Assembly: GCA_037439845.1 (NCBI GenBank)
Contig: JBBIVF010000001.1
Span: forward strand, 1,842-65,841
Length of the DNA stretch: 64,000 nt
Source: Candidatus Woesearchaeota archaeon
GTDB lineage: Archaea > Nanobdellota > Nanobdellia > Woesearchaeales > JBBIVF01
Direction: 5' to 3'
Shown: one piece after another, positions 2,324 through 34,106 of the stretch
Numbering within the stretch: the first letter of the stretch is position 1
Layout of the letters: every line of letters starts with the position of its first letter
The notes under the pieces: generated by a model
Database searches by the model: none
What the model was told of the DNA's origin: nothing
Seen by the model: only the letters and a program-made list of their open reading frames with translations
Made by a program: the position numbers and the translations under genes

Positions 2324-3277
2324 ATGGAACATTCGATCTGGACAGAAAAATATAGGCCATCAGAATTCTCTGAAATCATTGGCCAAAAAGATGTTGTCTC
2401 TCGCGTAAAAGCATTTGTTGAGCACAAGAATATGCCTCATTTGCTTTTTACTGGTCCTGCTGGCGTAGGCAAGACTACTTTAGCAATTGTTGTCGCGAAA
2501 AAACTTTTTGGAGAAAATTGGAGAGGAAATTTCCTTGAACTAAATGCTTCTGATGAAAGAGGTATTGAGGTTATCAGGGTAAAAGTGAAAGATTTTGCCA
2601 GAACAAGAAGCATTGGAGATGTGCCTTTCAAAATAATTTATCTTGATGAGTGTGATGCTCTTACAAAAGAAGCCCAACAAGCTCTCAGAAGAACAATGGA
2701 AAATTTTACCCAGACCTGTAGATTCATATTATCTGCGAATTATTCCTCCAAAATCATTGAACCCATACAATCAAGATGCGCTATTTTCAGGTTCAAGCCT
2801 TTGTTGAAAGATGATGTTTTTGAAATTATCGAAAGAATCGCAAAAAATGAAAAACTTTCTATTGACAAAGACGCTAAAGATGCTTTGTATGAAGCCTGTG
2901 AAGGCGACCTCAGAAAATTAGAGAACATAATGCAAGCATGCGCTTCACTCGGAAAAAGCATATATGCTGAAAATGTTTTCTCAATGGCTGCAATGGCAAG
3001 GCCAAAAGAGGTCAAAGAGGTTCTTGAGCTTGCTGTGAAAGGAGATTTTGTAAAAGCAAGAGCAAAATTAATAGATACAATGCTCACTTATGGAATTTCA
3101 GGTCTTGACATGATTAAACAAATACAAAAACATATTCTAGACATTAATATAGACAAGCACAAGAAAATGGAGCTTATAGATTATTGTGGTGAAATAGAGT
3201 TTAGAATGACCGAGGGCTCTGACGAATACTTACAGCTAGACTGCCTGCTGGCAAGAATGGGTGTTGCGGGTAAATAA
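2324..3277 (+). CDS. rfcS: Replication factor C small subunit
   Basis: Walker A GPAGVGKTT, DEAD-like LDECDAL, SRC motif SRCAIFRF, and an N-terminal EKYRP box. 317 aa, no intein. Confidence 0.9.
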   Translation: MEHSIWTEKYRPSEFSEIIGQKDVVSRVKAFVEHKNMPHLLFTGPAGVGKTTLAIVVAKKLFGENWRGNFLELNASDERGIEVIRVKVKDFARTRSIGDVPFKIIYLDECDALTKEAQQALRRTMENFTQTCRFILSANYSSKIIEPIQSRCAIFRFKPLLKDDVFEIIERIAKNEKLSIDKDAKDALYEACEGDLRKLENIMQACASLGKSIYAENVFSMAAMARPKEVKEVLELAVKGDFVKARAKLIDTMLTYGISGLDMIKQIQKHILDINIDKHKKMELIDYCGEIEFRMTEGSDEYLQLDCLLARMGVAGK

Positions 3278-3319: not shown

Positions 3320-4309
3320 TTATTGAGCTGAAACATCTCTTATTTCTAAAGAGGTCTGTGCTCTGTCAAGATATTTGTAGATGAGCTCAATATCAAGTTG
3401 ATGCTCAAACTTGCCCTTGATACCTGAGACATCCAGAGTGCATGAAACTTTTCTTGGAGCTACTGCTCTTGACTCTGTTTCAAATAACTGCACATATCCT
3501 TCAGAAGAACTTGCTGATACTCCTTGCAATCCTGAACAAACTGGTTTTCTCCCATTTAGCTCAGAAGTTATTTTTAGATATACCTTGTTTCTTTCTGGAT
3601 TTGTTACAACATCATCGCAGACTGATTCTGTATATTTGAAGATGCGTCCATTACCCACATGCTCAATGTCAAATGTGAACTGCAGCTTGTCCTGTCCTAG
3701 CGGCTCTTGTCTGAAATTGGTAATGTGTATGGGAGATTTAGATGATTTTGCATCTTTGTAGCCTGAGATCTTGCAGATAGTTTCATCAGACACTATTGCA
3801 TCCAGCAAATTTTCCTTCACACACACCAATGTTGAGGTATATGTAATGTAATTATAGCAAATATCTACTGCTATTGTAGTTTGAGTGTTGCCTCTTATAT
3901 TTCTCTGGTAATTAAGGTTTGGGAATTCAATAACATCTTGGTCTCCTGGAAGTATTGTACCATCAAAATTCTTTGTTGCGCCTTTTAGAGCCGGCAGAGG
4001 TTTCTTAAGGTCTGCTGATGAAACGCCCCAGTCAGAAGGATTTATTCCTGAAAGCTCAACATATCCATCTGCTGCTCCTTTAATATCTGCTTCGCCATTA
4101 TTTGTTATCTTTAATCCTATTCCAAATGGATAGCCTTTATTATCAAAAACATATGGCGGCGGCATACCTGGCATGAATTCCAATGAAAGTCCACCAACTC
4201 CGCCAATAAATGGTTCTGTTGAACCTGTTTGTGTTTCTTGTTTTCCACAACCGAAAATTGTTATAACAACTATTAAGAGAGCCAATATCACAAAAAATTT
4301 CTTATTCAT
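3320..4309 (-). CDS. Secreted lipoprotein, paralog 1 of 3 of an unknown Cys-containing family
   Basis: Signal peptide plus lipobox (IFGCGKQ). Shares GLSLEFMPGMPPPYVF and DICYNYITYTSTLVCV motifs with the two upstream paralogs. Confidence 0.6.
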   Translation of the reverse strand: MNKKFFVILALLIVVITIFGCGKQETQTGSTEPFIGGVGGLSLEFMPGMPPPYVFDNKGYPFGIGLKITNNGEADIKGAADGYVELSGINPSDWGVSSADLKKPLPALKGATKNFDGTILPGDQDVIEFPNLNYQRNIRGNTQTTIAVDICYNYITYTSTLVCVKENLLDAIVSDETICKISGYKDAKSSKSPIHITNFRQEPLGQDKLQFTFDIEHVGNGRIFKYTESVCDDVVTNPERNKVYLKITSELNGRKPVCSGLQGVSASSSEGYVQLFETESRAVAPRKVSCTLDVSGIKGKFEHQLDIELIYKYLDRAQTSLEIRDVSAQ

Positions 4310-4334
4310 CTAAACACCTCCTTTCCTAAGTCAA

Positions 4335-5462
4335 TTAATTTTGTAATATCCTTAATGATCCTTGTATGGAATCATAATAACCATATCCTAGCACTATTCT
4401 TATTGGAGTTTCATAAGCAGATAATCCTTTTGCAGCGTCAGGAACGCAAACAATAGGACTTCCTCCATAAACGTAATTTGTAGTAAATGGGTTTGTTGGT
4501 GGTGCTAAACCCGTGCCTTTGTTTCCATGACAAAATTCACAAGTAATTACTGCTTCATTATTTATCAGCCGTATTTCACCTTCTGGAGTAAGCGGTCTGC
4601 AGGTTTGAGTTATTTCTATGTTTGAAACATAAACAGACGATAACCTGACTTTATTGATATCTTCATAATCAAAATCAGGACATATTTTCTCTCCTTTTAT
4701 AGATTCGACGAGAGAATATGGGAATCCTCTGCCAAGATTCCTTATGTATATCCTAAACTTGGTTTTTGAGGATGTTGTCTCTTGTTCTATTCTTGTTATA
4801 GCAATAGGTGCTGCCTGAGAAGTTAATGTAACATCATGAGGTGAGCATATTTCATTCTCAATACGCTGTGTAAATGGATCTGGATCTATGCATACAGAGG
4901 GATTTGCATAAGTCACATATTTATAGCAAACCTCTACTTTATACTTCTGCTCCATTGAGGTAGGTATTCCTCTTAAATCTGCTTTGGCTTTTATTGTCAT
5001 CAGCTCAGAGTTGCCTAAAGAATTGTATGGGTCTTTTCCATACAGATCAGGCGCGATTGTGCAGCCTGTACTTTCTGGTCTTGGATCGCAGAGATTGTTT
5101 GAATAATCATAACCTTGGAATATTGGGAAATATGTTGTATCTAATCCTGAAACATATAATTTTGCTTCTAATGGAAGTTCAATCATCATTCCACCAAAGA
5201 GATCTTTTGTATATTCATTTGGAAATCCTCCTCTATTATAAACTTCTATCAAAAACTCAAACTCATCTCCATTATAGACCACTGCAGGCGGAGCATTAGG
5301 CAAAAGCCTTAATGTCAGACCCTCAGTGCCTGTTAGATAGGCTGTGCTTGATCTTTTTGCACTGCTTCTATCTTTGCCACAAGAAAACCCAAACATTAGA
5401 AGAGTTAATAAGATACAAAATAACATGAGCTTTGTGGATTTTTCCATTATATATCTTTTCAT
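4335..5462 (-). CDS. Secreted lipoprotein, paralog 2 of 3
   Basis: Signal peptide with GFSCGKD lipobox. Motifs GLTLRLLPNAPPAVVY and VEVCYKYVTYANPSVCIDPD. Confidence 0.6.
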   Translation of the reverse strand: MKRYIMEKSTKLMLFCILLTLLMFGFSCGKDRSSAKRSSTAYLTGTEGLTLRLLPNAPPAVVYNGDEFEFLIEVYNRGGFPNEYTKDLFGGMMIELPLEAKLYVSGLDTTYFPIFQGYDYSNNLCDPRPESTGCTIAPDLYGKDPYNSLGNSELMTIKAKADLRGIPTSMEQKYKVEVCYKYVTYANPSVCIDPDPFTQRIENEICSPHDVTLTSQAAPIAITRIEQETTSSKTKFRIYIRNLGRGFPYSLVESIKGEKICPDFDYEDINKVRLSSVYVSNIEITQTCRPLTPEGEIRLINNEAVITCEFCHGNKGTGLAPPTNPFTTNYVYGGSPIVCVPDAAKGLSAYETPIRIVLGYGYYDSIQGSLRILQN

Positions 5463-5595
5463 TATAAGCTATCTTTAAAAAATAGTATATTTAAACTTTT
5501 CTAAAATGATATTTAAAGTTTACTGTTAAAATTTACTGCTTAGAATAAAAGAGTTTTTGACGATAAAAAATATTTAGTATTGTTGAGTGATAAAG

Positions 5596-6585
5596 TTAAC
5601 TAGGAATCTTTGTTATTCTTGTTCCTGTTGTCCAGGTTTGGGTATAACCATAATCGAATTTTACTATTAAAGGAGAAAGGAAAGACCTTCTTGAGGCAAG
5701 CTCATTTTCCTGAAAACGTTCTGTCCAGCATCTTGTCTTGCCTATATTGTCCTTTATCAAAATATCCTGAGGAGAACAAATTAGTGGCTTGCCCATAAAT
5801 GTGCCATTGAAATGCACAATGTTTATTGTAGACCTGTTGATTGGTTGATTTGAACATGCTTTTTGGATGTCATATATATTCAAAACAGTACCTTCTGCAT
5901 AATTTGTTAATTCAATATAAAATTCTGGCCTGTATGTTGTGTCCCAAGGCAATATTCTTACATCTATCAATGAAACTCCAATAGGTGCGCCTTGACCTGA
6001 AAATTTAAGGGGTTGAAATTCACACACTCCTTTTGTTACTTTAGTAGAATCTGCTGAATCCAAATTCACGCAAATATCAGCAACAAGATATGTAGAGTAA
6101 TCATAGCATGCAGTCACTCTGAACTTCACATCATGATAAAAAGAAAGATTTTCTAATTTTTTTGTCTGAAATCTGAGTATTGCTGTTTCTTCCTGGCCTT
6201 TTTTCTCATATAATGTCTTTCCTGCCAAAGAAAAAGGAACCAATTTGTCTTTTGTTATTGGGGTTTTGGCATAGGTGCCATTATTGAAGATCACATAATC
6301 TTTTTCTGTACCAATACCGAAATATCCGTTTGTTATGTTGAATGCTCCTATGTTTTCTAAATCGAATATTAACTGTATTTCCTGTTGTTCCATAACTTCT
6401 TCTGGAGGTGCATTTGGCATAAAATTCAATTCCAAACCTCCTTTTCCTGAATACAATTGTTTTATCATTCTATCAATTTCTGTAGGAGAAAGAATTGTAT
6501 CTTTTTTTTGGCATGAGCTAAGAATAAGTAAGCTAATTATCAATGCTAGGATTATTGCTTTTTTTATTATTTTCTGATTAATCAT
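5596..6585 (-). CDS. Secreted lipoprotein, paralog 3 of 3
   Basis: Signal peptide with LSSCQKK lipobox. Motifs GGLELNFMPNAPPEEV and VTACYDYSTYLVADICVNLD. Confidence 0.6.
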   Translation of the reverse strand: MINQKIIKKAIILALIISLLILSSCQKKDTILSPTEIDRMIKQLYSGKGGLELNFMPNAPPEEVMEQQEIQLIFDLENIGAFNITNGYFGIGTEKDYVIFNNGTYAKTPITKDKLVPFSLAGKTLYEKKGQEETAILRFQTKKLENLSFYHDVKFRVTACYDYSTYLVADICVNLDSADSTKVTKGVCEFQPLKFSGQGAPIGVSLIDVRILPWDTTYRPEFYIELTNYAEGTVLNIYDIQKACSNQPINRSTINIVHFNGTFMGKPLICSPQDILIKDNIGKTRCWTERFQENELASRRSFLSPLIVKFDYGYTQTWTTGTRITKIPS

Positions 6586-6601
6586 TTTAAGTCTTTTTTA
6601 G

Positions 6602-9580
6602 TTATCTTGTTAATATATCTTGTGGAGTGCCTGTGCCATCATAAATATCTTTACCTAACTCAATCGGGTCTGACTTTTCTGATGCATAGGATATTTCTCC
6701 TGGAGGTTGATTGAGATTAAAGTATGTTCTAATATAATAACAATATTGCTGCTTTTGTAATGAGATTGGAGGACTTAGTGGATACTCGTATTTATCTTTT
6801 CCTAAAGGTGTTATTGATACTGACCTTAATTTATTATTGTCATTGCACAAGAACTCAATAATTTCATATTTTTTTACAATCTCAGGATATTCTTTCTCTA
6901 TTTCATTTGGCTGGAAAGAAATTATTAACTTATTGGCTGAAGTGTTCATAAACACAGTGGGTTTAGATGTGCTTAAGCCTGTATGGGTCGTTCCTAAGGT
7001 TATATTCATTTCTTCTGAATCATTGAAATTGTTTTGTGAATCTATAGCTCTTACCTTATAAGTATATGTACCTGAAAATTTCTCTACACCTATGTATGCG
7101 TATGTCTTATCATAAGGAATATCTGCCACAAATTGGAAATCCTCCATAATATTTGATCTTTTCCTGTATATCTTATATCTAATGTCTTTCTGGTCAATAG
7201 TATGAGGATTCCATGCTAATGCGAGCACAAGTCCTGCGTCTTTTATGTCTTTGAGCATTGTGATTTCTGGCTGAGGTGGAGGTGTAATATCCCATTTTCC
7301 TGCCTCTAGTTCATTTTTACACTTTTGATAATTAGGATATATTTTATTAATATGATTTTTTGTTTCTGGTGGAAGAGAACATTTAGATATACTGCAGGTT
7401 GTTGCATCACAACAGTACTTCATCACATTCCCTATACCCCAATTATATGCTGCCAGCATTAGTTTTATTCTCTCTTCAGGATCTGTAATTCTGTTTTTGA
7501 TTTTTTCTTCTAATTGCATAATCAGCCAATTATAATAAAACATTCCTCCGCCTATGTTAGAGTATGGCAAAAATCTTGAATCTATTTCTGGTAACTGCTG
7601 AGGTGCTATTGAATTTTTAAGTTCCTTTAATTCTTTGACATAATTTGAATCAGGAGAATTGCCTTTGTAATCTTTAAAGAATTTGGTTAATCCTGGTGAA
7701 GGCTTAGCAGACTTTTCCATGTCATATGCTGTACCTGGCATAAGTTGCAAAAGACCTACTGCTCCTTTATTAGAAATAGCGCAAGGATCTCCTGCAGATT
7801 CTTGTAGAATAGAGGCTATTGCTAAACATCTTGGAATTCCTGACTGCTGTTCCCAAAAGTCAATTTCTTTTTTATAGTCGGCATAGATACATTTAAGAAG
7901 ATTCTTGCTTGGACATTCTTCTTTCTTGCCGCATTTAACGAATGCATCTCCAATAGTTGAAACAAACAAAGGCTGCTTTTCTTCACCTGCTATACCTAAT
8001 GTCTCGTCCTTAATAGTTACAACAAATGCCTTGTCTAACTCATAAACATACGATATTGAGGCCTTGATATATCTAACTGTGAGAGGATTGTCTGGCTCCA
8101 TTATATTAGGGTCTATTTTAACTTGACACCTGAATGACTTGAAGTTCTTTATTTCTCTCAAATTTGATACAGAAACATTATATTCATTCACATCAGATTC
8201 CTGGCTTGAGACGAGCAGAGGTTCGAAGAAACAATTTTCTTTTACGAATTCTATCTCTTTTGGCAAAATCAATTTTAAAGATGTGATGTTGATTATTTTG
8301 CCATCTGGCCCCCATTCATTATCTATTGTAATTCCAAATTGAGCAAATGTGACAGGCGCATCTTGAGATTGCTTGACTTCAATCAAGGAAGGTCTCATTT
8401 CCATTCCTATGCTGATTGGTCCTTGGGTATAGATTGCTATTGGCTCTCTTGGTTCTATTTGATATTCTACATATGGATCTATATTCTGAGATTTTAATGT
8501 TCTTACTCTTTCAAAATCAATGAGATTTATCTGAAAGTAAGAGAATGTATCGAAATTGAATGTTGATGTGAAGTGCACTCTGTAAGAGCCAGGGTCTGAA
8601 TTGTACTGGCTTGGGCTGAACCTGCAGTTTATTGTTTCTTCGCCATAATTATAAATTGAGACACTTTTTGGAAATACTCTGTCTGCTTCTACTTTACTTC
8701 CTGAATATTCTATATAGCAATTATTAGTGATATTTATTTCTTGGTTTGAAAGCGTCCTTGCGCTCAATGTTGCCCAGACATCTACATCTTCATCAGAGTA
8801 GAACTCATCTGTTGCTCTTGAGAGGTCTTCAAGTTTTACTCCTAAAGGTGCATCTTTGTTTTCTTCTACTTGACCTATGTAATAATCAGATGTCGCGATC
8901 TGATATTGCTTATCCCAGAAATTTTTTATCGATGTTTTTGTTTCGGAAGTAAGTAAAGCTATGTTTGCCATCCACTTTCCAATTTCTTTTGTTGCAATAG
9001 AAGGGTTCATAATGAATTTGACTACTGACCTCGAGAGTGACAATGTGGACTGCGTCAAGAAAGCAATACCAGCTATCAATACAAGCACAACTAATATTAT
9101 CAAGAAAACCTTTATTATCGAGCCCAATGATGTGCCAACTCCTGAATGAGTTTCTATCTCTATTTTTGTTTCACCTGGTTTGGGGTGAAGTTTTTTTTCT
9201 CTTCTATGTGCAATGAATACAAACAAAAGCCAGAAAGGAAAAATGTCTATCTCAAAAAAACCACCTATACCTTCTATAGCCATGGCCAACCAGCTACTAT
9301 TTCCTATCACAGGTCTTAGCAAAAACCCACCAACAATATCGAATATTGCGCTTGCTGCTGAACCAAAACCCCAAAAAAGACTTAATAATGATAAAAGATC
9401 AAGGATTAATGCATAGACATAAGCCATTGTCCAGTTCCTTTTTGGTGCTTCTCCTGCTGTTGCGGATTTTGAAAGCAAACCTGCCTTATTTGACATCTTG
9501 TTTAGAGCATCTGCTATCTTGTCCATTGCACTTGCTGATTTAGAAGCAGAATCTTTTTTGAAAAAATTCTTTAAGCCCAT
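6602..9580 (-). CDS. Large multi-pass membrane protein with a lytic transglycosylase (SLT) domain and a beta-rich extracellular region
   Basis: 992 aa. N-terminal hydrophobic helices (YVYALILDLLSLLSLFWGF, FPFWLLFVFIAH, IIKVFLIILVVLVLIAGIAFL). SLT signature CLAIASILQESAGDPCAISNKGAVGLLQLMPGTAYD followed by LAAYNWGIGNVMKY. Confidence 0.7.
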   Translation of the reverse strand: MGLKNFFKKDSASKSASAMDKIADALNKMSNKAGLLSKSATAGEAPKRNWTMAYVYALILDLLSLLSLFWGFGSAASAIFDIVGGFLLRPVIGNSSWLAMAIEGIGGFFEIDIFPFWLLFVFIAHRREKKLHPKPGETKIEIETHSGVGTSLGSIIKVFLIILVVLVLIAGIAFLTQSTLSLSRSVVKFIMNPSIATKEIGKWMANIALLTSETKTSIKNFWDKQYQIATSDYYIGQVEENKDAPLGVKLEDLSRATDEFYSDEDVDVWATLSARTLSNQEINITNNCYIEYSGSKVEADRVFPKSVSIYNYGEETINCRFSPSQYNSDPGSYRVHFTSTFNFDTFSYFQINLIDFERVRTLKSQNIDPYVEYQIEPREPIAIYTQGPISIGMEMRPSLIEVKQSQDAPVTFAQFGITIDNEWGPDGKIINITSLKLILPKEIEFVKENCFFEPLLVSSQESDVNEYNVSVSNLREIKNFKSFRCQVKIDPNIMEPDNPLTVRYIKASISYVYELDKAFVVTIKDETLGIAGEEKQPLFVSTIGDAFVKCGKKEECPSKNLLKCIYADYKKEIDFWEQQSGIPRCLAIASILQESAGDPCAISNKGAVGLLQLMPGTAYDMEKSAKPSPGLTKFFKDYKGNSPDSNYVKELKELKNSIAPQQLPEIDSRFLPYSNIGGGMFYYNWLIMQLEEKIKNRITDPEERIKLMLAAYNWGIGNVMKYCCDATTCSISKCSLPPETKNHINKIYPNYQKCKNELEAGKWDITPPPQPEITMLKDIKDAGLVLALAWNPHTIDQKDIRYKIYRKRSNIMEDFQFVADIPYDKTYAYIGVEKFSGTYTYKVRAIDSQNNFNDSEEMNITLGTTHTGLSTSKPTVFMNTSANKLIISFQPNEIEKEYPEIVKKYEIIEFLCNDNNKLRSVSITPLGKDKYEYPLSPPISLQKQQYCYYIRTYFNLNQPPGEISYASEKSDPIELGKDIYDGTGTPQDILTR

Positions 9581-9623
9581 CTAGCACCTCTGGAATCGAA
9601 TCTCTGGACATAGATACTTGATC

Positions 9624-10805
9624 TCATTCTATCAGTCGTATCTGTAATGTTAAAATATCAAGCCGTGTTCTTGGAACTATTTCAAGAGCATTGTTGCCTA
9701 ATCTTATGTATTGATTTATTATCTTAGAATATATTCTCTCGTCCTGATTAAGATTGGTTTCGATGCCGTTGATAATCAATTTAGCACTTTTTTGGGATTC
9801 TTCATCCACAAATTCTATGTATAATTCAATATCATATGTATTGTCAATAATACTGTTAAGTGTATCTAAGTCTATGTTGAAGAAATAAACTGGATTGACT
9901 ACTTGCTTCAGTTCATTCTTGATGACTACTTGGTCAAGCAAGAAAGTGCCTTTTGTTGCCTTGAATTCAATATAATTCTCGTTTTCCTTTAGTATCAATG
10001 GAGAGAACTCTATCAATACAGGAGATTTGCAGTCAGGCACTCCTGAAAATATCTCTTTGTCATTTATAGCAATACTCAGTGCACTCACTTCTGCTTCATT
10101 GCACTCTGGTATAAACCTTAATGCAGAGCTTTTTATGTTCTTGAGTTGTGATGATTGAATCAAAAACAGATTCTTTGAGGTTTGCTTAGAGATGTCAGTT
10201 ATGTCAGCCACTATCTTTAAGTCATTGACATCAAATTCATTTTTTAGCCAGAATCTCCACCCGACCTTATCTGTTTTGAATTTCAATGTATTCTGCTCTT
10301 TAAGCATTGCTTTCGGAAGCTCTATTGGATCAACATAGCCTTTTGTTATTCTTGCATTGAATATCTCTTTGCCATTAAGTTCAATTATCATTCTGCCTTT
10401 TGATGCTCCTACATTGAATGTCATCAATACATTATTTGTGTTAGGCAAGTCTTTTATCTCAAGACCTATGATTTTTTCATTTGTGTCAAAGAATGAATCT
10501 GAAATATAGAAAGGAGCAAAAGTCTTCAGCACTTGTGGCTCTGTGCTTGTGTATAACCTTATAGGATTCAATGCAATATTTTTTGAGGTCTCTCTTGTAA
10601 CATCAATTGTGCCTGGATGCTCTAGTAAAAGAACCTTGGCAGTAACATTTGTGTGGGGTGTTGGGGTTGTGCCTGTTGTCGGACCTAGAAGCTCTTCTCT
10701 TGCTTCAGGCGGAATGAACAAAAGATATAAAATAATTATCAAAGCTATAACAACAACCAAACTTGCTGCGCTGGTGCCAGAAGGCTGGGCTTTCTTGTTT
10801 TTCAT
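9624..10805 (-). CDS. N-terminally anchored extracellular protein, first gene of the surface cluster
   Basis: 393 aa. N-terminal KKAQPSGTSAASLVVVIALIIILYLLFIPP hydrophobic anchor followed by a Thr/Pro linker. Co-directional with 6602..9580, 43-bp gap. Confidence 0.5.
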   Translation of the reverse strand: MKNKKAQPSGTSAASLVVVIALIIILYLLFIPPEAREELLGPTTGTTPTPHTNVTAKVLLLEHPGTIDVTRETSKNIALNPIRLYTSTEPQVLKTFAPFYISDSFFDTNEKIIGLEIKDLPNTNNVLMTFNVGASKGRMIIELNGKEIFNARITKGYVDPIELPKAMLKEQNTLKFKTDKVGWRFWLKNEFDVNDLKIVADITDISKQTSKNLFLIQSSQLKNIKSSALRFIPECNEAEVSALSIAINDKEIFSGVPDCKSPVLIEFSPLILKENENYIEFKATKGTFLLDQVVIKNELKQVVNPVYFFNIDLDTLNSIIDNTYDIELYIEFVDEESQKSAKLIINGIETNLNQDERIYSKIINQYIRLGNNALEIVPRTRLDILTLQIRLIE

Positions 10806-10929
10806 AATATCATCCCTTTTTTGTTGACTTTTTTGTTGAAGAGTTATTAATATTTATAATTAATATTTATAACATATATTTATAACATGAAACATTACCT
10901 TTATATATTTAAGTTTTTCTAAAATAAGT

Positions 10930-11994
10930 ATGAAAATACTTGATTTGAATGAAAAAAAAGCATTTTTTAAGGTAAAAATCGAAAATGCGGATGATTTATG
11001 GTACTTGAGTCAATTAATCGAAAAAAATGACCTTGTTAGCGGAAAAACTGAAAGAAAAGTCAAGCTTGGAGAATCAGATGAAAGGAATGTTAAAATTATA
11101 AAAAAACCTTGTTTTTTGGAAATTGAGGTTGAGAAAATTGAGTTCTCCAAGTTCCAGAATTGGTTAAGGGTTTCTGGAAGGATAAGACAGGGGCCTGAAG
11201 ATGTGCAGAAAGGTTCATACCATACATTTAATCTTGAACCTGATGTTATTGTGAATGTGCAGAAAAAGGAATTGCTTAAATATCAAGTCCAGAGACTTCG
11301 TGAAAGTGCTGAAGAGAAAGAAATAAGAGTATTGATTGTTGTGCATGATAGGGAAGATGTGATTTTCGCGAAATTAAATTCGCAAGGATATGACTTGCTA
11401 AGCGAAAAAAAAGGAGAAGTTGAGAAGAAATTTGAGGGCTCGAAAGTTGTAGGGAATTTCTATGAGGATATAATCAAGATAATAAAAGAATATGATTCGC
11501 GTTATAATTTTCATAATATTGTAGTTGCATCGCCTGCATTCTTCAAAGATGATTTGATGAAATTATTGAAAGATGATGCGTTGAAAAAGAAAATTGTGTT
11601 AGCTACTTGCTCCACTGCAGATGAAAACGGCATTAAAGAAGTTGTGAAGAGAGCTGAGATAAAAAATGTGCTGAAGCAGAACAGGTATGCGATTGAGATT
11701 CAGTTTGTGGAGGAGGTGTTGAAAGAGATAATGAAACAGGGAGCAGTTGCATATGGCTTGAAAGAAGTCGAGAATGCAACAAATATGGGTGCAATTAAAA
11801 ATCTTCTTGTCAGCGACGAGCTGATAATGAAGATGAGAGAAGAAGAGAATTATGAAAAGCTTGAGGCTATAATGAAAAATGTAGAGTCTGCAGGCGGCGA
11901 AGTTCATATAATAAATTCTGAGCATGAAGGCGGCAAAAAATTGAATGGTTTGGGAGGAATTGCTGCCTTGCTAAGATATAAGGTTTATGAATAG
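10930..11994 (+). CDS. pelA: Pelota / aDom34 mRNA surveillance protein
   Basis: 354 aa. N-terminus MKILDLNEKKAFFKVKIENADDLWYLSQLIE. eRF1-like central and C-terminal domains. Confidence 0.85.
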   Translation: MKILDLNEKKAFFKVKIENADDLWYLSQLIEKNDLVSGKTERKVKLGESDERNVKIIKKPCFLEIEVEKIEFSKFQNWLRVSGRIRQGPEDVQKGSYHTFNLEPDVIVNVQKKELLKYQVQRLRESAEEKEIRVLIVVHDREDVIFAKLNSQGYDLLSEKKGEVEKKFEGSKVVGNFYEDIIKIIKEYDSRYNFHNIVVASPAFFKDDLMKLLKDDALKKKIVLATCSTADENGIKEVVKRAEIKNVLKQNRYAIEIQFVEEVLKEIMKQGAVAYGLKEVENATNMGAIKNLLVSDELIMKMREEENYEKLEAIMKNVESAGGEVHIINSEHEGGKKLNGLGGIAALLRYKVYE

Positions 11995-12008: not shown

Positions 12009-13514
12009 TTACTTTAGGTTCTCCAGGCCTTTCTTTGCAGTCTGGTTTCTGCTGTCTATCTTTAAGGCCTCTTGGTAAAAATATGTAGCGCAGTTTTTGT
12101 CTTTCATGAGTTCGCAGTTCTTGCCTAGGAATATGATTACATCTATATTTGTTTTGTTATTATTATAGTATTTTAGCATATGAGAGTGTGCATTCTGATA
12201 GTCTCCAATATTCATCTCAAGCTTTCCCAGTTCAAACCATTCCTTCAATTTATTGGGCTCTTTCTCGAGATATTTTTTGTACATAAATATTGCCTTTTTT
12301 GTATTGTTTGTGGATTTTTTGGCAATCTCAAGTATTTTCTTGGCTTTCATATTCTTTATTTCTTCATACCATTCTTTTTCAAGCATCTGTTCTGAATAAC
12401 TAATTTTTTTTGTTGATGTCTCTACTTCTTTTTTTGTCTTTTCTTTTTCTTGCTGCTCTTTTATGAGTTTCTGCTGGTATGTTGTTGATTCTTTTTTATA
12501 CTGCTCTAGTTCCCACATTGCTTTTTGATTACTCTTTTCTAATGCCTTTGCTTTTTCTTCCTGGGATTTGAATGCCAGAAGAGCTTGCTGCTTTTCATAT
12601 TCCGCAGTGGATAATCTTGAAAGTAAGTTGCTGTTTTCTCTTTCCAAAGAATTTACTTTTCCTTCAAGTTGATATATTTTTTGTTGTTTGTTTTTTAGAT
12701 CTTGATCTCTATTTTTCACAATAGTCTCTAATGAATTTATTTTGATTAGTGCTTGTTTATATTTCGATTTTATATATGCTTTTCCAGTAAAAATATAGCC
12801 TAAGAAAATTCCTATTATTAATGCTATTACTCCAACTACTAATAGATTTTTGGAAGTAATGTCAGAAGATGAAGAGTATGAACTAGAAGAAGGTGATGCC
12901 ACATATATTGGTCTGGCCGCAGAAGCAAGTTGTGATTTCAATGAACTTATTTTTTCCTCAAGAGATGATATTTTTGAATTAGCTTGCACCAATTCAGATT
13001 TTAAATTTTGAACTTTTGAGACTTCTTGTTCCTTTTGTTTCTTAAGTAGATCTAGCTGTTTTTCTAGCACCTCAATATTTTGCTCTTTCTCATTTAAAAG
13101 GTTCGATTTCTGTTTAAGCTCATTTGTTTTATCGCGAAGCTCGGATTGTTTTTTCCCTAGTTCCTTTGTCTTTTCCTGAAGCTCTCGTTTTAACCTTGTT
13201 ATCTCTTTGTTTTTCTCGTTTAATTGCTCTTTTAGATTCAACTCAAAACCGACTTGAGTGTCTTCAAGTCTCTTTTTTTCTATCAATAGATTTTCATACT
13301 CTTGTTTCTTTAGAGAGAGCTCATTTTCAAGAGATTCAATTTTTAATTTGATATCATCAATATTGAAAAGAGCTTTTGTGACAAGATTTGGGTTATATTT
13401 CTCAAAAAGAGACAATATGCTAATTTCAATTTCCTCTTCTTCTTTGATATATTCGTCAAAATATTTTAGAATTTTTTGATATGCATCAAAATCCTTTTTT
13501 ATCCCTTTTAACAT
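12009..13514 (-). CDS. Bitopic membrane protein with long coiled coils either side of one TM helix, and a TPR-like C-terminus
   Basis: 501 aa. Heptad-rich segments. Ser-rich linker ASPSSSSYSSSSD. TM helix LLVVGVIALIIGIFLGYIF. C-terminal helical repeats (EWFELGKLEMNIGDYQNA...YFYQEALKID). Confidence 0.5.
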   Translation of the reverse strand: MLKGIKKDFDAYQKILKYFDEYIKEEEEIEISILSLFEKYNPNLVTKALFNIDDIKLKIESLENELSLKKQEYENLLIEKKRLEDTQVGFELNLKEQLNEKNKEITRLKRELQEKTKELGKKQSELRDKTNELKQKSNLLNEKEQNIEVLEKQLDLLKKQKEQEVSKVQNLKSELVQANSKISSLEEKISSLKSQLASAARPIYVASPSSSSYSSSSDITSKNLLVVGVIALIIGIFLGYIFTGKAYIKSKYKQALIKINSLETIVKNRDQDLKNKQQKIYQLEGKVNSLERENSNLLSRLSTAEYEKQQALLAFKSQEEKAKALEKSNQKAMWELEQYKKESTTYQQKLIKEQQEKEKTKKEVETSTKKISYSEQMLEKEWYEEIKNMKAKKILEIAKKSTNNTKKAIFMYKKYLEKEPNKLKEWFELGKLEMNIGDYQNAHSHMLKYYNNNKTNIDVIIFLGKNCELMKDKNCATYFYQEALKIDSRNQTAKKGLENLK

Positions 13515-25839: not shown

Positions 25840-26427
25840 ATGAAGTTAAATTTTAAATGCGTTTTATTATTTTTTCTTCTTCTGATTGTTATTTTCAATT
25901 TTGGCTGCAAGAGAATTAAACAAGGTGAAGAAAGCTGTGACATTGACAAGTTAATCAATGATTATGATGGAATTAATATTTATACTCTTGACCTTAGGAA
26001 GATAATTGAATGTGATATTTATGTTGTTCCTAAACTGAGCACGTATGCTGATGATCCTTCAAGAAACAAGAGATATGCTGCAATAATGGGTTTAAGCGCG
26101 ATTGCCAAAGAATATGATATGAAAGAAACTGCAGTAAGTGTATTAAAACAGAAATTGAAAGATCAGGATATTTCAATAAAAATAATTGCTTCTTCTTTGC
26201 TACTCTCTTTTGGAGAGAAAGATGGATTCGATATTCTTATAGATAATATAGACTCTGAAGAAATGCTGAGGCCAAGTGAGCCGCCAATGCCTATATCTCA
26301 GAAATGCCTTGATACATTAAGAATATACACAGGAAAAGATTTTTCAGAAAAATCAGAATGGAGCCTTTGGTATAAAGATAATAAAGAAAAATTGAAATGG
26401 AATGCGCAAGATGAAAAATTCGAATAA
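25840..26427 (+). CDS. Secreted HEAT-repeat lipoprotein
   Basis: Signal peptide with FGCKR lipobox. PBS-lyase/HEAT-like helices (DPSRNKRYAAIMGLSAI, DISIKIIASSLLLSFGE). Overlaps the next gene by 26 nt. Confidence 0.5.
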   Translation: MKLNFKCVLLFFLLLIVIFNFGCKRIKQGEESCDIDKLINDYDGINIYTLDLRKIIECDIYVVPKLSTYADDPSRNKRYAAIMGLSAIAKEYDMKETAVSVLKQKLKDQDISIKIIASSLLLSFGEKDGFDILIDNIDSEEMLRPSEPPMPISQKCLDTLRIYTGKDFSEKSEWSLWYKDNKEKLKWNAQDEKFE

Positions 26428-27937
26428 ATTTTTCATTATCGGTATTTTTGCTATTTTATTCTTGTTTTTACTTCCTAATACTTTGGCAAAAAACAGTTGC
26501 TCAAGAGATGGATGCGAGATAACCATAACAATAAATATGGTCGCGTCTGGAGGAAATCAGGAGACAATTGACAATTGGATAAATGACATAGAAGATGTGT
26601 GGAATGGTCCTGTCCAAGGAGATGGAGCTTCTCCGACATATGGAGAATGCAAATGCCCTGTCAATTTTGAGGTTAATTTCTCTGGTTTTGTTACTACGTG
26701 TAATGGCACCTCAGGAAAATATCATTGCATTGAGATAACGCCAGAAGCTGCCAAGGATGAAGCAGGAGAAACATACAGAGGATATATGGACGGTGTTTCA
26801 AATAATGGCTCTTCCCTGAGAGGATGGTGGAGTTCATCAATGATGAACACTCCTGTAAGAGTTGGTGATGAAACATTTGATACTGTTCATGATGCTGCGC
26901 ATGAAGCAGGACATATGTTGGGGTTGGATGATGACTATGACAAAGAAACAGGAAGATATGGAAATAATATAATGGGAAGAACTTGGGGAGATGATGCCAG
27001 GCCAACACAAGAGCAAATAAATAAAGCTGTTGAAAACAACTGCAAAGAAGAAGAGAGAAAATGCCCTGATGAGTGCTGCTGTCCGAATGGAAATATAGAT
27101 AAGAACAAAGATGAAGAGTGTGACCCGCTTGCATCGCCTCAAGGATGCGGAAAAAATGAAGATTGCGGTTTTGATTGTAAATGCATAAAGAGGCCTTTTT
27201 GCGGAGACGGAAACATAAGTGAAGAAATAGGAGAAGAGTGTGAGCCAGATGCAAAGCCAACTGGATGCAAAGAGGATGAAGAATGCACTGAAGAGTGTTT
27301 GTGCGAGAAAAAACAGGAGAATATTACAATAAATATTACTTCTCCACCAAACAATGCCAAGATATCAGGAGAAGAAACAGTAAGGACTGCTGTGAGCTCT
27401 GTTGAAAAGATAGAAAAAGTGAAATTCTTCCTAGATGATGAGCCGCAATACACTGATTATTCTTTGCCATACAGTTGGACTTTTGATTCTAGGTCATTTG
27501 ATCCAGGAGAATATGTATTAAAAGTTATTGCGTATAGTATTTCTGGAAATACTGCTGAAGATGAGATTGAAATAACAATAGAAGAGCAAAATGAGAGTGA
27601 TGATGGCGGAGGTGGAGGTGGTGGAAGTAACAGAGACAATATTACTGTTTGCGGTAATGGAGAGTGTGCTTTTGAGAGTGGCGAGAATTGCCTGAATTGT
27701 CCTCAAGATTGTGTGTGTGAAGGAATCTGCAATCCTGAAGACGAGATGGCTGATGAAATTGGTTGCGTATATGCTGAAATTGCTTGTGGAAATGGTTTGT
27801 GCGAACCTCAAAATTTTGAAAATTGCCTAACTTGTGTATCTGATTGTATTTGTATTCCGCCGTATTTATGCGACCCTGAGAATGCGTATGCTGATTTAAT
27901 GGGATGTTATGAGCCTTTGCCTCCTACTGCAGGCTAG
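26402..27937 (+). CDS. Secreted Cys-rich multidomain protein with a zincin-like HExxH motif
   Basis: Signal peptide. HEAGHMLGLDDDYD. Repeated Cys-rich modules (KCPDECCCPNGNIDKNKDEECDP; CGDGNISEEIGEECEPDAKPTGC; VCGNGECAFESGENCLNCPQDC; ACGNGLCEPQNFENCLTCVSDC). A beta-rich middle domain and a GGGGGGGS linker. Confidence 0.55.
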   Translation: MRKMKNSNKFFIIGIFAILFLFLLPNTLAKNSCSRDGCEITITINMVASGGNQETIDNWINDIEDVWNGPVQGDGASPTYGECKCPVNFEVNFSGFVTTCNGTSGKYHCIEITPEAAKDEAGETYRGYMDGVSNNGSSLRGWWSSSMMNTPVRVGDETFDTVHDAAHEAGHMLGLDDDYDKETGRYGNNIMGRTWGDDARPTQEQINKAVENNCKEEERKCPDECCCPNGNIDKNKDEECDPLASPQGCGKNEDCGFDCKCIKRPFCGDGNISEEIGEECEPDAKPTGCKEDEECTEECLCEKKQENITINITSPPNNAKISGEETVRTAVSSVEKIEKVKFFLDDEPQYTDYSLPYSWTFDSRSFDPGEYVLKVIAYSISGNTAEDEIEITIEEQNESDDGGGGGGGSNRDNITVCGNGECAFESGENCLNCPQDCVCEGICNPEDEMADEIGCVYAEIACGNGLCEPQNFENCLTCVSDCICIPPYLCDPENAYADLMGCYEPLPPTAG

Positions 27938-33946: not shown

Positions 33947-34030
33947 ATGCAGGGGAAGGGATTCGAACCCTCGTAAGCACTAAGCTACTGGATCTTGAGT
34001 CCAGCCCGTTTGGCCACTCCGGCACCCCTG
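33947..34030 (-). tRNA. tRNA-Leu (anticodon CAA) with a long variable arm
   Basis: The reverse complement is GCAGGGGTGCCGGAGTGGCCAAACGGGCTGGACTCAAGATCCAGTAGCTTAGTGCTTACGAGGGTTCGAATCCCTTCCCCTGCA. It has a 7-bp acceptor stem, an anticodon stem CTGGA/TCCAG, the loop CTCAAGA, a GGTTCGAATCC T-loop and a variable arm. CCA is not encoded. Confidence 0.85.
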
Positions 34031-34106
34031 CAAAAAACTCAGACAAAAACTCAAATTAGCAAAGAGGTGGTCAGAGTATTTAAAAAAGTTACTGAGAATA
34101 AATGCT

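Follow-up and report, generated by a model that had tools for sequence, protein, structure and literature searches.

The subject of this analysis is a block of five genes, here called A to E, in a 64-kb stretch of DNA from a Candidatus Woesearchaeota archaeon (the window; positions are counted from its first nucleotide), and in particular the large membrane protein B, which carries a lytic transglycosylase domain. The window is AT-rich (GC 0.25-0.39) and contains archaeal core genes such as those for MCM, Orc1/Cdc6, the small subunit of PolD, Hef, PheRS, RNase J, HerA and SecDF, and the GC content of the block (0.33-0.36) is the same as that of its surroundings. All five open reading frames (ORFs) lie on the minus strand: gene A (9624..10805; 393 amino acids, aa) comes first and is followed by B (6602..9580; 992 aa), C (5596..6585; 329 aa), D (4335..5462; 375 aa) and E (3320..4309; 329 aa). 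They are flanked on one side by rfcS (2324..3277, plus strand) and on the other side by pelota (10930..11994, plus strand), which match neighbours with the Pfam domains Rep_fac_C and Pelota, respectively, in related loci. A first-pass annotation, made from the sequence alone, had placed five co-directional minus-strand genes between rfcS and pelota, and the ORFs were found exactly at its coordinates. Its range of 25-130 bp for the intergenic spacers holds roughly for A-B (43 bp), C-D (133 bp) and D-E (25 bp) and fails for B-C, where only 16 bp separate the genes. Also, its description of an N-anchored A, a multi-pass B and three paralogous lipoproteins agrees with the hydropathy profiles, the pairwise E values and the lipobox cysteines that are given below. 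B alone matches a curated family, and no match to any Pfam or NCBIfam family was obtained for A, C, D or E.

Protein B consists of a polytopic anchor, a tandem beta-sandwich ectodomain, an SLT domain and a beta-rich C-terminal region. The membrane-anchor region (aa 51-178; 9047..9430, minus strand) has three to four hydrophobic segments within aa 51-176. It is weakly conserved in sequence and its number of helices differs between orthologs, with three to seven hydrophobic segments ahead of the ectodomain in the family representatives. The ectodomain (aa 224-529; 7994..8911, minus strand), which defines the family, comes after a hydrophobic helix that has a basic loop before it and is predicted to form two tandem immunoglobulin (Ig)-like beta-sandwiches. 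The SLT domain extends over about aa 573-760 (7301..7864, minus strand). For the remaining C-terminal region (aa 770-992; 6605..7273, minus strand) beta strands are predicted, with predicted local distance difference test (pLDDT) values below 50, and it is probably Ig/FN3-like. This region has no Pfam match and matches weakly (E = 0.06) the FN3-like tail of the B homolog P0002; FN3-like tails occur also in ortholog L032 and, judged by the sequence pattern of the tail, in L007. The Pfam fn3 model itself gave, over the whole of B, a best match of E = 0.14 (12.8 bits against a cutoff of 25) at aa 304-376, that is, within the ectodomain.

The family-1 lytic transglycosylase motif that had been noticed in B belongs to a domain matching Pfam SLT (PF01464) with E = 1.4e-14 and 54.1 bits against a cutoff of 21.3, over aa 573-626 plus a second stretch. 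Partial matches to lytic transglycosylases were also obtained with NCBIfam, the best one being to the flagellar assembly transglycosylase BB0259 family (E = 5e-12). The motifs of the domain are QES (aa 593-595), GLLQLMP (aa 609-615) and AYNWG (aa 711-715). When the segment IPRCLAIASILQESAGDPCAISNKGAVGLLQLMPGTA of B was aligned with E. coli Slt70 (chain 1qsa), Glu594 (LQES; codon 7799..7801, minus strand) stood opposite Glu478 (RQES), the established catalytic residue of Slt70, and Glu594 is the predicted catalytic acid of B. Similarly, the ES motif of MltC aligns with the Glu594 motif, and in the Slt70 and MltC alignments GLLQLMP is found opposite GLMQIMP and AAYNWG opposite AAYNAG. B resembles E. 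coli Slt70, MltC and MltE (PF01464, GH23) in the catalytic Glu within an E-S motif, in GLMQ and in AYNxG, and differs from them in that about 45 aa are inserted between its motifs II and III, in several extra Cys residues and in its archaeal membrane scaffold; an identity of about 50% is reached over a 42-aa core only. The catalytic Glu and GxMQ are kept in 11 of 11 B-fused SLT domains that were aligned, and the SLT domain looks catalytically competent. The structure model is helical over aa 540-760 with pLDDT mostly below 60, the underlying alignment not having reached this part of the protein.

A single-sequence search with full-length B found one homolog besides B itself, P0002, on whose 3.6-kb contig it stands between a homolog of A (upstream) and one of a lipoprotein (downstream), and a two-sequence profile of the ectodomain led to 16 more. 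On the four longest contigs the gene order is identical, with pelota pointing away from A, then A, B, C, D and E, and then rfcS and a PRC-barrel gene, which both point towards the block. A scan of species-representative genomes added 34 loci, which are titled Woesearchaeota, Nanoarchaeota or Nanoarchaeia, besides some third-party "Methanosarcinales" assemblies, and all loci were annotated with home-built hidden Markov models (HMMs). The complete five-gene block with both flanks was present in about 20 loci and many partial contigs were consistent with it, so that the conservation of the five genes as a group is very strong among relatives. In these, the genes of the module stand close to one another or overlap, as B and C do, by a few bases, in L003, L005 and L006. 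Across genomes the module proteins are 25-45% identical, compared to 62-69% for RfcS and 38-56% for pelota, and a low identity of the module next to a highly conserved RfcS reads as the usual signature of fast-evolving surface proteins. A two-gene form of the module was found, mostly in marine metagenome-assembled genomes (MAGs), at L011:7885-11526, L043:3-3659 and L044:7965-11992; A, D and E were not found within the flanks examined, the cargo at the C-terminus of B is Amidase_2 or NlpC/P60, and in L043 and L044 a gene for an H+-pyrophosphatase follows directly. L010 carries A-B-C only. Since reduced loci keep only B plus a C-type lipoprotein, B-C can be regarded as the minimal conserved unit. 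Judged by synteny, the block as a whole is a core, vertically inherited component at a fixed chromosomal position in Woesearchaeota-type DPANN archaea.

Several of the module-bearing loci (L008, L010, L012-L014, L017, L019, L025, L027, L031 and L034) come from third-party MAGs labelled 'uncultured Methanosarcinales archaeon'. Where RfcS is on the contig, it is 62-69% identical to the RfcS of the window, and these organism labels are probably wrong. The conserved gene order also extends past the module, as genes for a Cas4/PD-(D/E)XK nuclease and a tRNA-synt_1b (tyrosyl/tryptophanyl) protein follow rfcS and the PRC-barrel gene in L002, L005 and L041.

The occurrence of the block at the same pelota-rfcS position across genomes led us to reject a mobile island. 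It also bears on an origin from an integrated virus or mobile element, in which the SLT domain would be a virion-associated lysin. Such an origin could explain why the SLT segment matches phage endolysin and lytic tail families of PHROG (E = 2e-18 and 2e-13) and why tblastn against phages detects remote similarity, about 29-30% identity, to SPbeta YomI-type tape-measure transglycosylases. However, no PHROG match was found for A, C, D, E or the scaffold of B, the chromosomal neighbours are the same in about 20 genomes, as in vertical evolution, and no integrase, repeats or compositional shift were seen at the block. We consider a viral origin extremely improbable, since the conserved synteny effectively refutes it.

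The three genes C, D and E encode proteins that share 23-25% identity with one another (pairwise E = 1e-14, 3e-9 and 1e-13), and each protein starts with a hydrophobic segment ending in a lipobox-type Cys. When compared to the archaeal lipobox pattern [LVI][ASTVI][GAS]C (PMC12462473), the box of C (ILSSC, 6511-6525; L-S-S-C) is canonical, and those of E (TIFGC, 4247-4261; I-F-G-C) and D (FGFSC, 5379-5393; G-F-S-C) are near-canonical. The lipobox Cys is present in 15 of 15 orthologs, mostly in canonical boxes such as LAGC, FVGC or LSAC, and four more Cys residues are invariant in the C/D/E orthologs. Lipoproteins are common in DPANN archaea, and AliA, which acts in lipidation, has been reported in DPANN generally (PMC12462473). 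E is the most conserved of the three, with up to 283 bits to its orthologs. Since C, D and E are positional orthologs, each best-matching the protein at the same position in other genomes, the triplication is older than the split between these lineages. In L019, L022, L031 and L034, extra length is present in some orthologs of A, C and D, and no Pfam domain was found in it.

When the profile of the B ectodomain was compared with that of C/D/E, the match had a probability of 84% and E = 7.4e-6 over 190 collinear columns, and the motifs of the two families pair one to one: F.F.T.SY of B corresponds to CY.Y.T.AS of the lipoproteins, GPV.IGM to GAPVAVT, GITIDN.W.G to F.I.I.NVG.G, and the terminal Y.Y.LE to YGY. 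Because of this match and of the one-to-one motifs, the ectodomain, or stalk, of B is probably a fourth, older and distant paralog of the lipoproteins.

Protein A shows no relationship to B or to C/D/E in profile comparisons. Its single N-terminal hydrophobic anchor (aa 13-31; 10713..10769, minus strand; hydropathy 3.17) is followed by a predicted beta-rich, extracytoplasmic part. When segment profiles were compared by hhalign, three tandem repeats of about 95 aa each (9627..10484, minus strand) became apparent: R1 (aa 108-205; 10191-10484), R2 (aa 206-300; 9906-10190) and R3 (aa 301-393; 9627-9905), with a probability of 97.5% and E = 6e-12 for R1 versus R2 and of 58% and E = 1e-4 for R2 versus R3. 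Orthologs of A occupy the equivalent position in about 30 loci with HMM scores of 150-590 bits. For A, neither Pfam nor PDB gave a match, and this did not change with a profile of 28 sequences; likewise, nothing significant came out of Pfam scans of 28 orthologs of A, and searches of PDB sequences with the A and C/D/E profiles produced just scattered sub-threshold matches to carbohydrate-binding jelly rolls. The repeats of A may be adhesive. The consensus of the A N-terminus, drawn from about 30 orthologs, consists of [KR][KR][GA]Q, small residues, 20 hydrophobic residues and a LYILFLPPxERxxLL-type motif. A class III (prepilin-like) signal has, at its cleavage site, a basic residue and then G/A, with a hydrophobic stretch of about 20 aa directly behind. 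In A orthologs [KR][KR][GA]Q is frequent, yet 3-10 small polar residues precede the hydrophobic stretch, and some orthologs carry KKAN, KKAD or KKGS instead, which departs from the usual arrangement of such signals. For the N-terminus of A, a plain signal-anchor is as likely as an unusual prepilin-type signal.

In locus L013, A is broken into two ORFs (148 and 267 aa) and B (639 aa) stops right after a Cys-rich linker, the one which precedes SLT in the sister genomes L014 and L016. The split A and the short B of L013 may reflect pseudogenisation or MAG assembly errors.

The length of B varies from 416 to 1222 aa among the loci, and the variation in its C-terminal part is informative. An exhaustive HMMER search of 1.84 billion cluster representatives yielded 173 family members at E <= 1e-30, and 162 of these with the B ectodomain were analysed. 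A recognisable murein hydrolase is present in 52 of the 162, and in every case the enzyme is C-terminal to the ectodomain. Our own HMMs detected SLT in 40 representatives, Amidase_2 in two and a GH73-like domain in two, and a Pfam scan of 52 long unexplained extensions added five SLT, two NlpC/P60, one Amidase_3 and one Peptidase_M23. SLT scores above the Pfam cutoff in 11 loci, among them L014, L016, L018, L019, L020, L021, L022, L027, L030 and L034, and is recognised by its motif in L037. Amidase_2 was found in L011, at 109.7 bits, and in P0031 and P0035; Amidase_3 in P0063 (E = 5.6e-20), in tandem with SLT; NlpC/P60 in P0050 and P0117 (best E = 2e-14), the latter being a GenBank "Candidatus Woesearchaeota archaeon" protein; and Peptidase_M23 in P0065 (E = 2.9e-12). 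The GH73/glucosaminidase-like assignments in L017 and L025 are tentative, as their scores of 19.9 and 21.1 bits are below the cutoff of 30.2. The full five-gene block surrounds the M23 variant (L042) as well as the SLT plus Amidase_3 variant (L041). In other loci Ig/FN3/PKD-like repeats are the cargo of B, and PKD/cadherin-like repeats make up a group of 22 members among the extensions that remain. In one clade, Cys-rich linkers separate ectodomain and enzyme.

On a rough neighbour-joining tree of the ectodomain, the SLT-bearing B proteins are spread over four or more distinct clades, in which enzyme-free members and close relatives with a different enzyme are mixed among them. The SLT domain of the window scores 16-52 bits against most other fused SLT domains, compared to 38 bits against E. 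coli Slt70. This scatter over clades and the divergence of the SLT domains fit repeated gain, loss and replacement. Judged from the domain assignments, the C-terminus of B is an exchangeable cargo slot dominated by murein hydrolases. The claim of the first-pass annotation that the cluster is built around the SLT protein does not survive this comparison, as SLT is one of several swappable cargoes and many B orthologs are enzyme-free. Two other impressions were discarded: that SLT is unique to the B of the window was a sampling artefact of the first 16 homologs, all of which have at most 661 aa and no Pfam domain, and an apparent SLT domain before the end of the ectodomain in 11 proteins was an artefact of negative-scoring HMM fragments. 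A further cargo, shared by nine members (P0091, P0097, P0108, P0114, P0131, P0137, P0146, P0147 and P0164), consists of a Cys-rich segment of the pattern C..C.D.DGC.C....C..P.G and, after it, about 150 aa that form a helical domain; Pfam gave no match for this cargo, nor does it resemble the SLT or GH73-like profiles.

The glycosidases, amidases and peptidases of the slot have only bacterial murein as a common substrate. Because unrelated murein-cleaving families have been recruited to one position, murein appears to be the real target, and this repeated recruitment speaks strongly, though indirectly, for an encounter of the tip of B with murein. According to the passages of Castelle et al. 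(PMC8204110) that deal with this point, murein synthesis is not reported for DPANN, and murein transglycosylases are treated as normally absent in Archaea. Because no murein synthesis is reported for DPANN, the target is most likely the wall of another cell. The same argument bears on the idea that the archaeon possesses a murein-like wall of its own which the module remodels during growth or division. Bacteria do use these enzyme classes as autolysins, and the module belongs to the core and keeps its place beside replication and translation genes. However, a survey of DPANN protein families that centred on bacterial-type pathways reports no murein synthesis (PMC8204110), no mur, mraY or penicillin-binding protein gene was detected among the 20 larger window genes scanned, which for 64 kb is weak evidence, and an essential remodeller would be expected in most orthologs and would not be expected to change its type from glycosidase to amidase or endopeptidase. 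We hold a wall of the archaeon's own to be very improbable.

The explanation that we favour, with moderate confidence, is that the block encodes a lineage-wide surface module whose B-tethered enzyme cuts bacterial murein on contact. B would be held in the archaeal membrane through its multi-helix anchor and would project the two-domain beta-sandwich stalk outward, with the exchangeable cargo at the distal C-terminal end; in this genome, the cargo would be the family-1 lytic transglycosylase with intact catalytic motifs, followed by the beta-rich tail. The lipid-anchored stalk paralogs C, D and E and the three-repeat protein A would assemble with B into a hetero-oligomeric surface structure, and from synteny and paralogy it is most likely that A, C, D and E form one complex with B. 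Upon contact between the archaeon and a bacterium, the tethered enzyme would cut murein glycan strands locally, and this local cut would open the wall for close attachment, for access to the host membrane or for the release of wall fragments. The action of the enzyme would be contact-dependent, because it is tethered to a polytopic membrane protein. We infer the extracytoplasmic location of the module proteins from the invariant Cys, the paralogy of the ectodomain to secreted proteins and the helix that comes after a basic loop; surface exposure, enzyme activity and a bacterial target cell are likewise inferred.

The tether also speaks to another possibility, that B is the precursor of a diffusible antibacterial or scavenging enzyme, from which the hydrolase is cleaved off in order to kill competitors or to harvest muropeptides. 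The patchy distribution and the domain shuffling do resemble those of arms-race peptidoglycan hydrolases (PMC12352652), and the Cys-rich linkers of one clade lie between ectodomain and enzyme. However, the partner to which the hydrolase is fused is always a polytopic membrane protein, never a cleavable signal peptide, neither a protease site nor a mechanism of release is apparent, and the conserved fusion point beside the stalk domain suggests display. A released enzyme is in our view quite improbable.

Several observations weigh against a contact-dependent murein-cutting module. Fold matches of the ectodomain are to generic Ig-like sandwiches and give no functional clue, and the single-sequence structure model of A is poor (mean pLDDT 36) and gives no fold. 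About 40% of the B representatives have little or no C-terminal extension (46 of the 162 with fewer than 60 aa and 20 with 60-130 aa), and because many B orthologs are enzyme-free, the core function of the module does not require a hydrolase. L011, L043 and L044 retain just B plus one C-type lipoprotein, and the 133-bp C-D spacer has promoter-like and terminator-like features, which makes a single transcript uncertain. Also, Woesearchaeota have often been proposed as associates of methanogens, which have no murein.

The enzyme-free orthologs would suit a general envelope scaffold that every cell of the lineage needs, such as a lattice which resembles or anchors an S-layer, or a structure that organises a pseudo-periplasm. 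The hydrolases would then be optional passengers, used in defence or feeding and tethered to the membrane through B for convenience, and the basic function of the scaffold would do without them. However, one third of the representatives bear murein hydrolases, of at least five families, at exactly this site, which is difficult to account for if the tip of B does not regularly come into contact with bacterial walls, and A, C, D, E and the B ectodomain have no Pfam, NCBIfam or PDB-sequence match to S-layer families and show generic Ig-fold likeness only. We regard a scaffold of this kind as unlikely, and it is partly compatible with the murein-cutting module. Starting from the latter, one can go further and propose that the five proteins are an order-wide machine for breaching bacterial walls, a hetero-oligomeric stalk with a cassette-like 'warhead' that is refilled to match hosts or prey. 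This is possible, and we put it forward only tentatively. If true, it would be the first conserved apparatus for episymbiosis or predation of an archaeon on a bacterium, and much of Woesearchaeota would rely on bacterial rather than archaeal partners.

Large SLT proteins are known from Woese- and Pacearchaeota and have been proposed, in the relevant passages of PMC8204110, PMC9723730 and PMC10936187, to bind or degrade bacterial walls; the corresponding passage of PMC8204110 cites Rinke 2013 and Castelle 2015 for SLT proteins. B resembles these DPANN proteins (Castelle et al., 2021, PMC8204110; Vigneron et al., 2022, PMC9723730; PMC10936187) in lineage, in the SLT/GH23 domain, in its large size and in the proposed role, and judged by lineage, size and SLT domain it is very probably one of the published large DPANN SLT proteins (fam00969; Castelle et al., 2021). 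In contrast, the passages on SLT in those reports give the domain and the protein size and contain no scaffold, operon, lipoproteins, pelota-rfcS locus or enzyme replacement. The first-pass annotation had suggested that a murein-cleaving enzyme is directed against the wall of a host and that the system is undescribed. The former idea is strengthened by the presence of at least five unrelated hydrolase families at the same position, and for SLT it had already been published; of the latter, the SLT proteins and their wall reading are in the literature, and full-text searches found no description of the shared scaffold, the five-gene operon between pelota and rfcS, the B-lipoprotein paralogy or the enzyme swapping. 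Because these features were not found there, what appears to be new is the system-level picture, the aim of DPANN SLT at bacteria being known.

Secreted archaeal peptidoglycan hydrolases (PLoS Biol 2025, PMC12352652) are also bacterial-type murein hydrolases in archaea that act against bacteria, and in Nanoarchaeota hydrolases of this sort are a prominent, varied and patchily distributed group whose domains have been shuffled (PMC12352652). Those enzymes are soluble and secreted, whereas B is tethered to the membrane within a conserved operon. The B fusions fall outside that survey, because it required a known cell-wall-binding domain beside the catalytic domain (PMC12352652), and a large class of murein hydrolases in archaea is overlooked by surveys of this kind.

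In phage tails, virion-associated peptidoglycan hydrolases (SLT, M23, NlpC/P60 or amidase domains fused to tape-measure or tail-tip proteins) resemble B in that a structural protein of a contact device carries a hydrolase at its working end, and the catalytic type varies between relatives, as in the B family, at a constant job, the local breach of a wall on contact. In contrast, their scaffold is unrelated, and the carrier in B is a cellular membrane protein that is chromosomal and, by synteny, vertically inherited. VirB1 (type IV secretion), EtgA (type III secretion), and FlgJ/SltF and Borrelia BB0259 (flagella) are similar in that murein is opened locally by a dedicated enzyme, an SLT or a glucosaminidase, which belongs to a component of the machine or is fused to it. 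They act on the wall of the cell that makes them, from its periplasmic side, whereas the producer of B would be without murein and the target would be another cell. No homology was found between B and the secretion or flagellar transglycosylases or the phage hydrolases outside the catalytic domains.

Woesearchaeota are among the most widespread uncultured archaea. With the present data, an earlier hint, SLT genes in a few Woesearchaeota genomes, becomes a defined and testable genetic system, which is characterised by one conserved locus, a scaffold family of at least 173 cluster representatives and an enzyme exchange at a single site, the exchange being independent evolutionary evidence for bacterial peptidoglycan as the substrate. 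B and the lipoproteins offer handles for antibodies, for localisation by cryo-electron tomography, for enzyme assays and for predicting the type of host from the type of warhead.

Shine-Dalgarno-like sequences are found ahead of A, B and E. Elements resembling a TFB-recognition element (BRE) with a TATA box (GAAAAnnTTAAATATA) occur at two sites: GAAAAACTTAAATATA (10904..10919, minus strand), upstream of A, is a candidate promoter, and GAAAAGTTTAAATATA (5486..5501, minus strand), which follows a T-run in the C-D spacer, is a candidate for an internal one. Both contain the common BRE/TATA-like word GAAAA[A/G][C/T]TTAAATATA; they were read off the sequence by eye, the spacer upstream of A is AT-rich, and the candidate promoters are weak evidence. 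The repeated word points to promoters of one type, and the block may give either a single transcript or two, A-B-C and D-E.

In an Rfam scan of the window, no rRNA or other structured RNA reached the gathering threshold besides one tRNA gene (33948-34031, minus strand). Just past pelota, a gene at 12009-13514 (minus strand) encodes a 501-aa protein with long coiled coils, a central hydrophobic segment and a TPR-like C-terminus, for which no Pfam match was found. About 6 kb from the reduced module of L044 lies a gene (L044:1-2028, minus strand) for a giant surface protein, which exceeds 2190 aa and contains LTD, He_PIG and Big_9 domains. In the window, a gene at 26402-27937 (plus strand) encodes a 511-aa protein with the bacterial Ig domain Big_7 (E = 1e-11), which is probably another surface protein of this archaeon.

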